From IMG/VR virus record IMGVR_UViG_3300029951_000066: a DNA stretch of 39,064 bases, one strand, 5' to 3'. The notes beneath the pieces are model-generated. The model was not told the origin of the DNA. It searched no databases and saw only the letters and a list, made by a program, of their open reading frames with translations. Shown in pieces: positions 128 to 39,064 of this stretch; position 1 is the first letter of the stretch, and every line of letters begins with the position of its first letter. This DNA comes from a virus. Both the position numbers and the translations under genes were made by a program.

Positions 128-1957
128 AGTAGCGCTAGCAGCAGCGATGCGGTCGATGCGCTCAATTTCGGCAAGGATCAATGCCCCGGCTTTAATAAGC
201 ATCCAACGCAGCGTGTCAGGTTTCCACCACTCGCGGCTCCAAGGCCACCATGGAGGAGGCTCGCAAAATGCACGCATAGGATCATTGGGCCATCCGATCG
301 CTATGTTTCCTGCATTCAGTGCATATGCTGCGGCAGCTTTCGCCATCTCCCCATTTGTATGCTCGTCATCGTGCTCGACCGTCCAACCTTCAACATTCAC
401 CTGACGAACTCGCTCGGCCAGCACATCGCGTACCGCATCACTCAGCCCGCTCGGCGCTGCTGTCTGATCGCCCATGCCAGCCGCGTAAGCATCCCGCGCT
501 ATCTGCTTGGGACTCGCGCCGTGCGCACGGTAGTCCGAATACCAACCTTCGAACCTGGAATCGCCAACGTGCCGAGTATCAGTGCTCGGCGCTGCTTGCG
601 GCTGGGCGGCGAAATAGAGAGGGAGTGTCGGGTAATGCTTCGGACGATCACCGACATCGAGCAATGGCACCGTGTTGGCCCACAACGGCCCTTGCGTCGG
701 ATGAATCGGAACATGCGCCACCACTCCCCCAGCCTCACCGATAGGGGCGCCGTGGGTTTTAAGGTGATTCTCAAATCTTGCGAATGCCTGTTGTGACTCA
801 GCACCGCGCCGGGATAATCTCCAGTTTCGAGCAAGGCTTTTTGCCGTTTCAATCCAATCTTCGCTTAAGTTTTTTTCGTGCCAAAACAGGTGCCCCGCAT
901 CAAATGACAGCGAAGAAATTTCCTTTGCCGGCATCCCGGAAAAGTCTTGTGCGGCATACCACTTCGAAAACTGCACGAGTGCGCCTCCTTCGGGGCCTGC
1001 CGTTCCTACCGGCGCAGCCTCACCGCTATGGGGCACGGGGGCGCTAGCTTGCATCCGTTCTATCTGGAAGCGGATCTGACCCAGCACCGAAAAGAGAGAG
1101 TCAAGCAGTTCAGCATCGTCCGCTGGAATAGCGCTCTCTAAACCCAGCGTCTTACAGATGCCACGCAAACGGGTTGCAGCGTAATCGTCCGTGCTCGATG
1201 CTACTTGCGGTGCCTTGGCGATCAGCGCGTCTGCATAGCCCAAGTCATATCCGAAGCTCCATGCTTCATGCATTCCTGCTGGGCACGTCATAGCCCCGTT
1301 CGGGTCGAGGCAATACCCCTCTGGCCATTTGATCTGTTTCGAGTAGCTCGGCGCTGCCGCAGGGACTATCACAGGTCCGTCAAATATGCGGTCTAGAACC
1401 GCATCCAATTGCTTGACTTGGCCCGTCGTCATGGAAAGCCGATCAGCAATCTGCGCATTAAGCAGCGCCTTCAATGCCGGGTCGCGCTTCGTATCGCCGT
1501 TGTACATAATCGGTGGAATGCTCGCATCTACCGGCACAGCGACGGGCGCAGCAGGTGCTGTTCCCGTTCCTGAGCACGATTTACACAAGTCAGCAGGCGC
1601 TTCGTCTATCCCGGTCCAAATCGAACCGTAGCCATCACATGCTTTGCAGGAGACAGCGACGAGATTGTGTTTCGCAAGCCATACTGCCAAGCTTAGAAGT
1701 GTTCCCTCGAACACTTGCTTAGCGGTGTGATCGGCCGATATTTGACCTTGCTGGTACATTTCCCAGCAATGATCCAATACGTCTTGTGTCAACCGCACCT
1801 TAACTCCCTCGCTCTTGTGGGCGATAGCTGCTTGCCAGCCGAGCCAGCAGATTTGCGCTTCGGTCGATGGGTAGTCATCGACCATCAGTGGGCCGGTATA
1901 GTTGTCAGCCCAATATTTCTCAAACGCCTCTCGGCTATCGCTAAGTTCTTTGCTCAT
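113..1957 (-). CDS. Large multidomain hypothetical protein (about 614 aa from ATG at 1957); CxxC...CxxC zinc-ribbon-like segment, three internal F-x-K/G-W-Y repeats, C-terminal acidic EHDDEH..GE motif reminiscent of MazG/DUF550-like NTP pyrophosphohydrolases
   Basis: 638-aa ORF in track; internal ATG (MSKELSDS) preceded by AGGAA RBS; stop overlaps the methyltransferase start (GTGA) in the circular sequence; domain call from motifs only. Confidence 0.6.
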   Translation of the reverse strand: MSKELSDSREAFEKYWADNYTGPLMVDDYPSTEAQICWLGWQAAIAHKSEGVKVRLTQDVLDHCWEMYQQGQISADHTAKQVFEGTLLSLAVWLAKHNLVAVSCKACDGYGSIWTGIDEAPADLCKSCSGTGTAPAAPVAVPVDASIPPIMYNGDTKRDPALKALLNAQIADRLSMTTGQVKQLDAVLDRIFDGPVIVPAAAPSYSKQIKWPEGYCLDPNGAMTCPAGMHEAWSFGYDLGYADALIAKAPQVASSTDDYAATRLRGICKTLGLESAIPADDAELLDSLFSVLGQIRFQIERMQASAPVPHSGEAAPVGTAGPEGGALVQFSKWYAAQDFSGMPAKEISSLSFDAGHLFWHEKNLSEDWIETAKSLARNWRLSRRGAESQQAFARFENHLKTHGAPIGEAGGVVAHVPIHPTQGPLWANTVPLLDVGDRPKHYPTLPLYFAAQPQAAPSTDTRHVGDSRFEGWYSDYRAHGASPKQIARDAYAAGMGDQTAAPSGLSDAVRDVLAERVRQVNVEGWTVEHDDEHTNGEMAKAAAAYALNAGNIAIGWPNDPMRAFCEPPPWWPWSREWWKPDTLRWMLIKAGALILAEIERIDRIAAASATGSGA

Positions 1958-2163
1958 GATTGTTCCTTTTCCGGGTGTGGGACTGGTTCCGAGATGCCGC
2001 AGTCCATCGGGGCCCATCCCGACGTCCACCCATCCTCTAGCTGACCATTGCGGCGTGTGTGAGGACCCATAGCAGACCGATATACGTAGAGCCCTCCCTG
2101 CTCATCGAGCCCGTACAGGTCTCCGTCTTCCCCTCCCATAGCTTGTATCTGAATGATTTTCAT
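1954..2163 (-). CDS. Hypothetical small protein (69 aa)
   Basis: ORF with strong AAGGAG RBS upstream of ATG at 2163; stop overlaps the downstream ATG (ATGA). Confidence 0.5.
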   Translation of the reverse strand: MKIIQIQAMGGEDGDLYGLDEQGGLYVYRSAMGPHTRRNGQLEDGWTSGWAPMDCGISEPVPHPEKEQS

Positions 2164-2465
2164 CCCAACTCCTTCTCAGCCTTAATAGCTGCGCGCATCG
2201 ATTCCAACTTGCCCCATGTGCTATTTGGCTTATCTGGGCATGGATACGTGTTCTTGGCGATAATCGCTTCGGCTTCCTCAAGCGCTGCTAGCAGTGCTGC
2301 ATGTGATGCAGAGAGACGCCGCAATTTGTCAAACTTCCTGTTGATATACTCGGTAAGTACCTGCGCCTCTTCTCGATTCTCTCCAAGACGCAGTCAATCG
2401 AACCCATTTCCTTTGATGGTTGGCCGTTCGTCAGCGCTGTAGTGGCGAACCACGAAATCTTCCAT
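2160..2465 (-). other. 101-codon reading frame interrupted by a single in-frame TGA (plus-strand 2394-2396); flanked by ATGA overlaps with both neighbouring genes
   Basis: Manual translation of the minus strand: MEDFVVRHYSADERPTIKGNGFD-TGA-LRLGENREEAQVLTEYINRKFDKLRRLSASHAALLAALEEAEAIIAKNTYPCPDKPNSTWGKLESMRAAIKAEKELG. Confidence 0.35.
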
Positions 2466-2689
2466 CATGCACCTCCCTTAGACGCCGACTGGGTGAGCAC
2501 CTCATCGGTCTGCTCGCTCGCCTTCGGATGCAAATGCGCAGGCTTGTGCAGCTCGACCGATTCGTATGCTGCCAATGTTGACCAAAGCTTTCCCATACCA
2601 TATACGGTGACACCGTCGAGCCGCACGTGATTCATATCAATCACATCATGCGCGGCTGCTATGAATGCTTCTAGCTCTTTGGTTTTCAT
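2465..2689 (-). CDS. Hypothetical protein (74 aa)
   Basis: ORF with AAGGAG RBS; ATGA overlap with the upstream gene. Confidence 0.5.
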   Translation of the reverse strand: MKTKELEAFIAAAHDVIDMNHVRLDGVTVYGMGKLWSTLAAYESVELHKPAHLHPKASEQTDEVLTQSASKGGA

Positions 2690-5343: not shown

Positions 5344-5525
5344 TCGTCATCTCCGAGGATTGCATCGATAGCTCTGTGAGCGTCGCCGCCCTGGTCGATC
5401 GCGGCCAAACCAGCGGACACAAGCTCAGGCGGATAGCCATAGAGGCCATGCGCTTGCTCGATGCGCAAACAGGCGTCGGTGTCGCCGCGCACCATCGCTT
5501 CGGCGTAAGCTTTGGATTCGCTCAC
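5340..5525 (-). CDS. Hypothetical small protein (61 aa, GTG start)
   Basis: ORF with GAGG RBS; start overlaps the upstream stop. Confidence 0.4.
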   Translation of the reverse strand: MSESKAYAEAMVRGDTDACLRIEQAHGLYGYPPELVSAGLAAIDQGGDAHRAIDAILGDDE

Positions 5526-5887
5526 GCTGCACCTCGCTCGGCAGCCTTCTCAGCCGCAGTCATCAGCTCATCTGCCTTGTTGTCGGCCATCTTGCCGAAT
5601 GCAGTCGCCAGCAGTGTGCGCACAGCAAAGCCGAGACGCGCATCGCGATTCGCTTCGTCGCCGGCCCATGCGCAGCTCAGAATCGTGCCCTCAGCTTGCG
5701 CGAAGTATTCGACAGCGCATTGCATGTCGAGGCCGGTTGGAGCTGCACAGAGGCGCTCGTATTCAGTGCGAGCGAGCTTCTCGTGCTCAGCGTTGTATGC
5801 CTCAATCTGGCCCAGCAAGCGCGTGTAATGCGATGCAGCTTGCTCGTGGCGCGCTTCTGCTATGGATTCGGTACGGGCTAAGTTCAT
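5522..5887 (-). CDS. Hypothetical protein (121 aa)
   Basis: ORF with GAGG RBS upstream of ATG at 5887. Confidence 0.5.
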   Translation of the reverse strand: MNLARTESIAEARHEQAASHYTRLLGQIEAYNAEHEKLARTEYERLCAAPTGLDMQCAVEYFAQAEGTILSCAWAGDEANRDARLGFAVRTLLATAFGKMADNKADELMTAAEKAAERGAA

Positions 5888-5982: not shown

Positions 5983-6648
5983 TCATGCGCGGAGGCTTGG
6001 AGGGTTTTTACTGTAGGCCCCTGCGGCGGCCCATGCGGCGGCCCCTGCGGCGGCCCGTGCGGCGGCCCGTGCGGCGGCCCCTGCGGCGGCCCATGCGGCG
6101 GCCCCTGCGGCGGCCCATGCGGCGGCCCATGCGGCGGCCCCTGCGGCGGCCCATGCGGCGGCCCGTGCGGCGGCCCCTGCGGCGGCCCCTGCGGCGGCCC
6201 ATGCGTTTGCGGCTTCGGTTTTTGCCTTTTCAAGTGCTGGCATCGCAAGACGCAAGTCTTGCTCGCACGTTAAGGGTGGCAGCGCTTTCAGCGCATTAGC
6301 ATGGGGCATGAGTGCCGGCGTTAAAGTGAGCCAGGCAGCGGTATGCACGCGTACCAACCAGTCCATCGCCATCCAAGAACGCTTGCGGGAGAGTTCGGGA
6401 CCCTTGTTCGTGCCAACCAGGCGCACGATGTACTGCTTGAGCTGCTCGCGCTCTTCGTCGCAGTGCATGCCGTCGTTCCACGAGATGCCGAAAGAACGAA
6501 GCACCGGATCGACGCATTCCGGCGTGTCGCCAAACGGTTCGTTAGCGAACATGCTCACGACTTCGAGCAGGCAGTGACCATCGTCGGGCGAGCCGTGACC
6601 GCCATGATTCAGGGCGATTGCATCGAGCATTTCCAGTGTCAGTTTCAT
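5983..6648 (-). CDS. Hypothetical protein (221 aa): unique N-terminal domain of about 145 aa followed by about 16 tandem AAA[W/G/R] tetrapeptide repeats
   Basis: ORF with strong GGAGAGGAAG RBS at its ATG (6648); C-terminal third is encoded by a 12-bp tandem DNA repeat. Confidence 0.55.
   Translation of the reverse strand: MKLTLEMLDAIALNHGGHGSPDDGHCLLEVVSMFANEPFGDTPECVDPVLRSFGISWNDGMHCDEEREQLKQYIVRLVGTNKGPELSRKRSWMAMDWLVRVHTAAWLTLTPALMPHANALKALPPLTCEQDLRLAMPALEKAKTEAANAWAAAGAAAGAAARAAAWAAAGAAAWAAAWAAAGAAAWAAAGAAARAAARAAAGAAAWAAAGAYSKNPPSLRA
6018..6205. repeat. Tandem array of about 15.7 copies of a 12-bp unit (cccNtgcggcgg), with only the 4th base varying (a/c/g)
   Basis: Direct reading of the sequence; unit boundaries checked by position. 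Confidence 0.9.
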
Positions 6649-38205: not shown

Positions 38206-38532
38206 TCAAGATCCTTTGGTACGGGCAGCGTCGATAGCTTCGTCTACGGTTTCCGGCTTGAACTTAACGCCATGGAATGCCTTTCCCACTGAAAGGTAGA
38301 ATGCGCATATCCCCGGCTCGCTCTTATCGCGCAGCCACCTATACCGCTCTGCATCAACTGCTAGCGCCTCGACCGCCGAGCGGAGTTTCGCTATTGCTTC
38401 TCGGTGCTTTTTGGAATCAGCCCCAGGAACGTAGCCCATCAGAGGAATTGCCAGGGTCTCGCATTCAAAGGCCAAAAGCATAACCTGCTCGACCGTTGGC
38501 GCTACTGTGGGGTTGGGTGTTGGGGTGGTCAT
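38206..38532 (-). CDS. Hypothetical protein (108 aa)
   Basis: ORF; ATGA overlap with the methyltransferase stop. Confidence 0.5.
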   Translation of the reverse strand: MTTPTPNPTVAPTVEQVMLLAFECETLAIPLMGYVPGADSKKHREAIAKLRSAVEALAVDAERYRWLRDKSEPGICAFYLSVGKAFHGVKFKPETVDEAIDAARTKGS

Positions 38533-39053
38533 GATTTATCTCCATGCGCAGCGGTCTTCATAAAGACGAGCCAGTGTGTGAGCCCTTTGCGGCCGCTTAG
38601 ATGGCCAAAGAGCGGCTTGACCTCAGCCAACGCCAAAACCTCACTCACCTTGATCTGCGTTTCATTCCACTTGAAGATCAAAACGCCATCCACGGAGAGC
38701 ACGCGAAAGCACTCTGCGAAGCCTCTGCGTAGGTCGTCGCGCCAGTCGGGACCGAGTTGGCCATACTTAGCTGCCAACCAACTCTTGGCTCCAGCACGCA
38801 CCAAATGCGGCGGATCGAACGAAACCAGTTTGAAAGCGCCGTCCGAATACGGCAAAGCACGGAAATCCAGCATCACGTCAGGCTCAATGCGGAGCGTGCG
38901 CGTGCCGCTGTCGTTACCATGCGAGCGGTCAGTAACGGTCAGCACCTCGTGACGCTGGTCGCCAAAGATCACGCTCGGGTGCTGGCGGTCAAGCCACATC
39001 ATTCGTCCACCGCAGCACGGGTCGAGAATTGTCTTTTCGGCTACGTCGCTCAC
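38529..39053 (-). CDS. Small SAM-dependent DNA methyltransferase-like protein (amino-methyltransferase motifs I and IV), orphan; GTG start lies in the terminal repeat
   Basis: Motif I-like ILDPCCGG and motif IV-like DPPH (DPPY variant); GGAG RBS; no adjacent restriction endonuclease gene. Confidence 0.55.
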   Translation of the reverse strand: MSDVAEKTILDPCCGGRMMWLDRQHPSVIFGDQRHEVLTVTDRSHGNDSGTRTLRIEPDVMLDFRALPYSDGAFKLVSFDPPHLVRAGAKSWLAAKYGQLGPDWRDDLRRGFAECFRVLSVDGVLIFKWNETQIKVSEVLALAEVKPLFGHLSGRKGLTHWLVFMKTAAHGDKS

Positions 39054-39064
39054 GCTCCGCTCCC
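38938..39064. repeat. Terminal redundancy, copy 2 (identical to 1-127)
   Basis: Exact 127-nt identity with the window start. Confidence 0.9.

Follow-up and report, generated by a model that had tools for sequence, protein, structure and literature searches.

The stretch of viral DNA analysed here (IMG/VR virus record IMGVR_UViG_3300029951_000066; 39,064 nt, hereafter the window) contains, on its minus strand, a frame that overlaps the genes on either side of it and is open along its whole length apart from one internal TGA. The question raised by this locus is whether that codon marks a gene recently broken, a gene whose stop is decoded or bypassed in some programmed manner, a short leader followed by a second start, or simply an error in the sequence. 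The frame (2160-2468, minus strand) begins at ATG 2468-2466 or ATG 2465-2463, ends at TGA 2162-2160 and possesses a single internal stop, TGA 2396-2394, with C as the following base. It comprises 103 codons counting both stops, or 101 sense-plus-internal-stop codons from the second ATG (2465), and translates as MMEDFVVRHYSADERPTIKGNGFD, a stop, LRLGENREEAQVLTEYINRKFDKLRRLSASHAALLAALEEAEAIIAKNTYPCPDKPNSTWGKLESMRAAIKAEKELG and a final stop. From ATG 2465, 23 sense codons precede the internal TGA and 77 come after it, exactly as given in an earlier, preliminary description of this DNA.

Both ends of the frame are tightly packed against their neighbours. The upstream gene (2465-2689, minus strand; 74 aa) terminates at TGA 2467-2465, which overlaps the start of the interrupted gene (gcATGATGg). 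The preliminary description assigned an ATGA overlap to ATG 2465-2463; such an overlap of 4 nt does exist, but it belongs to ATG 2468-2466, whilst ATG 2465-2463 shares only the A with the upstream stop (TGATG). It is nonetheless ATG 2465-2463 that corresponds to the called start of a homologue, P0001. A Shine-Dalgarno sequence for the interrupted gene, GGGAGG (2472-2477, minus strand), is still intact, and is conserved in the closest relative at the DNA level, L001. At the opposite end, the terminal TGA overlaps the ATG (2163-2161) of a downstream gene (1954-2163, minus strand; 69 aa) as ATGA at 2163-2160, again as previously described. This downstream gene harbours its own AAGGAG (2174-2169), five nt upstream of its ATG, so that coupling is not a requirement for its translation. 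In none of the loci shown was a gene called in the 300 nt between the two neighbours, and elsewhere in the window there is neither a second large gap between called genes nor another split gene. A naive longest-ORF caller would choose an antisense ORF of 127 aa with a GTG start (2059-2442, plus strand). This candidate was rejected as spurious, as the matching antisense frames are broken by stops in all relatives.

Comparison with related proteins demonstrates that the two sides of the stop belong together. When the joined frame was searched against 5.8 billion protein clusters, five proteins were returned, the best of which is 67 % identical. Four of these (P0001, P0003, P0004 and P0005; 99-115 aa) are uninterrupted phage proteins that span both sides of the stop, and all read ...RPTIKGNGFD-G-L.VGE.REEA..., placing Gly at the site of the TGA. 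The remaining protein, P0002, is common to the window only in its C-terminal 52 residues (~97 % nucleotide identity) and differs in its N-terminus; the protein is thus built from two exchangeable modules. The second of these, a C-terminal helical module (RLSASHAALLAALEE...KAEKELG; 2163-2318, minus strand), is shared with P0002 as an intact mosaic protein of the loci L005 and L006. The DNA of L001 matches that of the window at ~95 % nucleotide identity between the Shine-Dalgarno sequence and codon 64, and reads GAT GGA CTG CAT GTT where the window reads GAT TGA CTG CGT CTT. The premature TGA (2394-2396, minus strand) accordingly stands in place of a GGA Gly codon and lies a single transversion away from it (G>T at 2396 of the minus strand, which is C>A on the plus strand). 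The preliminary description argued from the coupling that a single gene extends, or until recently extended, over the entire frame, and this is borne out by homologues that read through the site and by a relative that differs there by one base. The comparison of orthologous loci that it proposed returns a sense codon in each case: GGA in L001, and Gly in P0001, P0003, P0004, P0005 and all 151 retrieved members of the wider family. As for two separate short genes at this position, which it named as the arrangement that would tell against a single frame, the relatives hold either one intact gene (L001) or a different mosaic (L005/L006), and the split of the window is seen in none of them.

The residue lost to the stop lies within a strongly conserved domain. 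A profile built from the four homologues was searched against 1.84 billion representative proteins and matched 324 clusters at E ≤ 1e-3 (296 at E ≤ 1e-10), with profile positions 2-46 delimiting a conserved region of ~45 aa, referred to here as the KGNGFDGL domain (2328-2462, minus strand). Its consensus is F-V-V-K-H-Y-x-x-D-E-R-P-x-I-K-G-N-G-F-D-G-L-E-I-G-x-D-R-E-E-A-E-x-F-V-x-W-V-N. Amongst the 151 members retrieved, conservation within the central block is K(151) G(151) N(147) G(149) F(151) D(151) G(151) L(149), and the column occupied by the TGA of the window is Gly without exception (151/151). The window matches the family on both sides of its stop and retains the invariant F, Y, P, K, G, F, D, G, L and N, with the sole exception of the second Gly in this series, the codon for which is the TGA. 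In 38 loci with readable DNA, the invariant Gly is encoded by GGT (10), GGG (10), GGA (9) and GGC (8); as all four GGN codons are used, the constraint therefore acts upon the amino acid and not upon the nucleotide sequence.

Scores against the family profile lead to the same view of the site. With Gly restored at the stop, the window scores 88.8 bits (E = 2e-27), within the family range of 85.6-110.1 and close to the 91.9 bits of P0001; with Trp at the stop it scores 82.6 bits, ~6 bits below the Gly version. Taken separately, the N-terminal 24 residues reach 49.3 bits and the 77 residues beyond the stop 23.2 bits, both in one frame and against one profile; the two halves belong to a single domain, and the frame lies far outside what chance would produce. 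In the AlphaFold2 model of P0001, which has a mean pLDDT of 90.7, three short strands are followed by a long helical hairpin, and the invariant Gly is positioned in a tight turn before the third strand. The domain is accordingly predicted to consist of three short β-strands and the start of a helix, and the TGA would cut it after the second β-strand.

Taken together, the frame is likely a plain and recent knockout of a small accessory gene by a single G>T change, GGA to TGA. Of the options listed in the preliminary description, a recent nonsense mutation is thus the one supported, with GGA in L001, an invariant Gly at the site and no stop at this codon in any of the relatives. The gene appears to lie in the early-left, recombination-side operon of a phage of ~38.9 kb that was assembled as a circle, and its product would have comprised the N-terminal ~45-aa KGNGFDGL domain fused to the helical C-terminal module. 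One G>T transversion would have turned the codon of the invariant Gly, GGA, into TGA, such that ribosomes starting at the intact GGGAGG-ATG would end after 23-24 residues, inside the domain. With translation ending there, the domain presumably could not fold and the protein would be lost; the downstream 69-aa gene, with its own strong Shine-Dalgarno sequence, should still be translatable.

The surroundings of the gene are those in which such a loss may be tolerated. The slot is hypervariable and mosaic, with L001 and L005/L006 holding different modules and extra genes between conserved flanks. In the sister phage represented by L005 (1-1025) and L006 (1-917), aligned to 1823-2617 of the window, the upstream gene is 100 % identical and the downstream gene 97 %, and between these conserved flanks lie an extra 69-aa gene and the gene for P0002. 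The recombination junction between L005/L006 and the window falls at ~2303, at a domain boundary inside the gene. Across 35 other loci, the neighbourhood of the domain gene displays essentially no synteny and so offers no clue to function, and together with the mosaic slot this absence of a fixed neighbourhood fits a dispensable accessory gene. Among 50,697 phage records, megablast, blastn and tblastn with the region and with 20 kb of the window as queries identified no relative of the locus; scattered short matches elsewhere in the window were to phages of Burkholderia, Bordetella and Ralstonia.

The remnant also appears young. No secondary decay, in the form of further stops, frameshifts or relaxed substitutions, is seen, and all 77 codons after the stop remain open. 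A Gly-restored score within the family range and an open downstream frame suggest that the lesion is recent and that decay has not begun; the lack of secondary decay reflects this recency and is not evidence against a pseudogene. Substitution counts relative to L001 over codons 1-64 (4 synonymous, 7 non-synonymous) and relative to L005 over the shared module (7 synonymous, 3 non-synonymous) are uninformative on constraint after the stop, because they are too few and pre-date it.

In its nature the feature is ordinary and of an already known kind, with no sign of programmed recoding. Nonsense pseudogenes of the mosaic regions of temperate phages (nin-region or 'moron' genes) likewise arise by a single-base change from sense to stop in a small gene of unknown function, and likewise occupy a highly variable position within an early operon whose genes overlap, with the genes on either side intact. 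There is no essential difference between these and the window, in which the stop hits a residue invariant in 151/151 members, is fixed and has left an undecayed remnant. The interval 2160-2468 should consequently be annotated as a pseudogene (disrupted, internal stop), and not as two ORFs or a recoding event. The feature itself is of little weight; this phage appears to tolerate the loss of one accessory gene. It also serves as a worked example of how the codon in a relative, residue conservation in the family and reproducibility across assemblies can resolve a coupled ORF with an in-frame stop.

Some observations sit less comfortably with a plain knockout. One is that the 77 open codons may still give rise to a residual product, the C-terminal module being autonomous elsewhere (P0002). 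The reading that builds upon this is one of domain fission, in which the phage has dispensed with the N-terminal domain and makes the C-terminal module by reinitiation at TTG 2324, behind AGGAAG, with ribosomes kept on the message for downstream coupling. We consider this unlikely, although it is the alternative that survives best. The in-frame TTG behind AGGAAG pointed out in the preliminary description is indeed present: the candidate restart (2322-2339, minus strand) consists of AGGAAG (2339-2334), a 9-nt spacer and TTG 2324-2322, from which a putative product of 54 aa would be made. This product equals the C-terminal module almost exactly, approximating to the portion that P0002 carries behind a different N-terminus and hence to an autonomous unit, and its frame is open to the ATGA junction. 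Against this, AGGAAG...TTG is identical in the intact L001, where it encodes NRKFDKL, and so did not evolve as a start; the element is probably just coding sequence. The TTG is also weaker than every neighbouring start, all of which are ATG preceded at 3-6 nt by GGGAGG or AAGGAG; it was accepted by none of the gene callers, and its 54-aa product is not on record as a called gene. Moreover, no standalone version of the module was found among the 5.8 billion protein clusters, and the TTG lies 70 nt from the stop, which is far for reinitiation by a terminating ribosome. The option of a 23-codon leader followed by a TTG restart, and likewise that of read-through, is disfavoured by this identity with coding sequence in L001, by the 151/151 invariance of the Gly and by the lack of conservation of the stop.

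Another observation concerns a potential hairpin at or directly 3′ of the UGA (2358-2396, minus strand), in which nine base pairs form between 2393-2385 and 2369-2361 and the stem can be lengthened as far as 2396/2358. Near the stop the window has three substitutions of its own (2396 G>T, 2389 A>G and 2387 G>C), each of which creates a Watson-Crick pair in this hairpin or its extension, and the hairpin is absent in L001, the single, diverged comparator against which these substitutions were judged. That all three strengthen the pairing is not predicted by plain neutral mutation, yet the fold is within the range of shuffled sequence: its free energy of -16.3 kcal/mol (z = -1.33) is matched by 20 of 200 shuffles, and in a 141-nt context z rises to +0.42. 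The three pair-making changes could reflect chance, hairpin-templated (quasipalindrome) mutagenesis or selection. If quasipalindrome template-switching were responsible, the locus would represent natural hairpin-templated mutagenesis knocking out a gene. As a signal in its own right the hairpin is not favoured, being within shuffle range and not a terminator; indeed, no terminator or above-chance promoter was found in the search for such signals.

One might therefore envisage a maintained arrangement, in which the clustered substitutions made both the UGA and a perfect hairpin behind it so as to tune expression, whether by low-level read-through, by restart of the C-terminal module, or by shielding of the untranslated 230 nt to keep the downstream 69-aa and 614-aa genes expressed. 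To this, routes included, we assign only a slim chance; were it true, a phage widespread in the environment would have been captured in the midst of a domain fission.

Programmed or regulated read-through of the UGA, yielding a low, condition-dependent amount of full-length protein with possible aid from the hairpin, is very improbable. Premature TGA is the leakiest stop in E. coli, at rates that vary with context and stress between less than 1 % and tens of percent, and bacterial UGA read-through inserts mainly Trp, with Cys as a minor product (PMC11126739). The frame beyond the stop is intact, a 9-bp hairpin follows immediately, with all three lineage-specific substitutions strengthening its pairing, and the UGA of the window is followed by C. 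Such a UGA C sequence is reportedly a weak termination context. A trace of full-length protein bearing Trp or Cys in place of Gly is thus probably made. However, either residue would replace a Gly that is invariant in 151/151 members and that is modelled in a tight turn, making function unlikely, and the version with Trp scores 6 bits lower against the profile. Unlike known programmed sites, this stop is found in none of the relatives, and it falls inside the domain rather than at a domain boundary or natural C-terminus. The hairpin, for its part, is not above chance in either context, and comparison with Rfam returned only sub-threshold noise, with no match to a SECIS element even at E ≤ 10.

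The coat protein of phage Qbeta, from which the A1 protein is made by read-through, offers a useful contrast. There too a phage gene contains an in-frame UGA with a long open frame beyond it, and that UGA is naturally leaky and read by tRNA-Trp to give the A1 extension. In Qbeta, however, the stop is conserved and marks the end of a complete protein, with the extension forming a separate functional domain, whereas the stop in the window is unique to its lineage, lies inside a compact domain and replaces a Gly that Trp could not mimic.

Further recoding routes were considered for the same codon and rejected. Selenocysteine insertion lacks a SECIS element, and homologues have Gly, never Cys, at the site. 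For a frameshift or bypass, homology runs on in the zero frame directly after the stop. For a bypass of the T4 gene 60 type specifically, there is no homology gap and no second GAT downstream for landing.

That the stop is a sequencing or assembly artefact, with GGA in the true genome, is extremely unlikely, notwithstanding that it differs from a sense codon by a single base and is judged from contigs. The identical 309 nt, TGA included, is found in nine contigs from nine assemblies produced by two pipelines (JGI and ENA/MEGAHIT-style), comprising the JGI loci 3300030524, 3300028806, 3300029997, 3300030693, 3300030580, 3300028877 and Ga0302220, and the ENA loci ERZ27248754 and ERZ27248691. Proteins identical to the products of the flanking genes are recorded in 77 blocks (upstream, 74 aa) and 69 blocks (downstream, 69 aa) of public assemblies, and no intact allele is present among the 5.8 billion protein clusters, a database that includes the gene calls of at least 69-77 blocks with this phage. 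When close copies were sought by exact pattern, with N in place of the mutated base, T was the only allele recovered (three in viral contigs, one in metagenome contigs and none in genome contigs). By comparison of contigs, the TGA allele is real and fixed in every sampled copy, and the error that the preliminary description allowed for is effectively refuted by the nine independent assemblies.

Over 5-14 kb the contigs do not differ from the window at all (100 % identity), indicating a nearly clonal population, and fixation is therefore silent as to whether the allele is neutral, deleterious or useful. Two genome variants, differing in the module beyond the 614-aa gene, both carry the TGA allele. 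In one of these (L007, L008, L010 and L012), genes of 108 aa and 65 aa at 38479-39064 of the window are replaced by a 161-aa gene and a DNA methylase (PF00145). This methylase variant occurs on contigs of 89,853 and 44,079 bp, lengths that could reflect integration, a concatemer or a larger relative. The ends of the window itself form an exact direct repeat of 127 nt (1-127 and 38938-39064), which is the signature of a circular assembly and gives a true genome of ~38,937 bp; sister contigs of 39,078 and 39,085 bp were recovered from other samples.

Least credible of all, to the point of being negligible, is that UGA is decoded as Gly, whether by a suppressor tRNA-Gly(UCA) of host or phage origin or by a reassignment like that of code 25, leaving the protein intact: the residue required at the site is Gly, the meaning of UGA in code 25 (Gracilibacteria/Absconditabacteria), but this match is explained by the trivial one-step path from the GGA of the closest relative to TGA, and whereas genomes with code 25 or otherwise reassigned stops have many in-frame TGAs, do not terminate at TGA and often carry a suppressor tRNA, the window has a GC content of ~56 % throughout, no tRNA, one in-frame TGA in any recognisable gene and TGA as its main terminator, ending about half of its genes, both neighbours among them (ATGA/TGATG overlaps), and its nearest DNA matches are phages of betaproteobacteria, which use the standard genetic code. 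The earlier remark that TGA serves as a normal stop elsewhere in this genome is in keeping with this, as ~34 of 61 ORFs called by a crude procedure end in TGA, the most frequent ordinary stop of the window.

Beyond the pseudogene, the more useful by-product of this analysis is the KGNGFDGL domain, which is widespread across phyla in phage and prophage proteins and uncatalogued in Pfam, PHROGs, NCBIfam and PADLOC, and which merits a family entry and a functional test. Its occurrences include the 324 representative clusters, 32 IMG/VR contigs, Paraburkholderia sartisoli, a Synechococcus MAG and a Planctomycetaceae MAG. It is found standalone, in proteins of 55-67 aa, or in N-terminal, middle or C-terminal position in proteins of up to 364 aa. 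Scans of the homologues, the multi-domain members and the neighbour genes with Pfam, PHROGs, NCBIfam and PADLOC yielded no family for the domain, and the only matches in the neighbourhood were DUF3799, on a 303-aa gene, and two PHROGs of unknown function. Neither a sequence profile search of the PDB nor Foldseek against the PDB identified a relative of the domain; a structure search of BFVD returned only uncharacterised phage proteins resembling it, and a literature search for the motif found nothing.

Individual members of the family display features of their own. In L021 (4001-4105; Planctomycetaceae MAG PABB01000040.1, the same contig as L037, IMGVR_UViG_2788500020_000001), the member ends early, with ...REEAEEFITGG followed by a stop; this end, inside the domain helix, may represent a second, independent truncation or frameshift. 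In L044 (IMGVR_UViG_3300028806_000051), a 51-aa stretch at 5422-5574 is 75 % identical to part of the 614-aa protein of the window and lies ~1.3 kb downstream of a KGNGFDGL-domain gene. This is a different phage, which shares one sample with the window phage, and the arrangement hints at a recurrent link between the domain gene and the 614-aa gene.

A separate feature of the window is a tandem array at 6016-6205, inside a 221-aa gene (5983-6648, minus strand), which consists of 15.8 copies of the 12-nt unit GGCCCCTGCGGC with 93 % matches. The array encodes an (A-A-A-W/G/R)n repeat within the C-terminal part of this 221-aa early protein; on the opposite strand and in other frames it gives PQGPPHGP and RRP(V/M/L) repeats.
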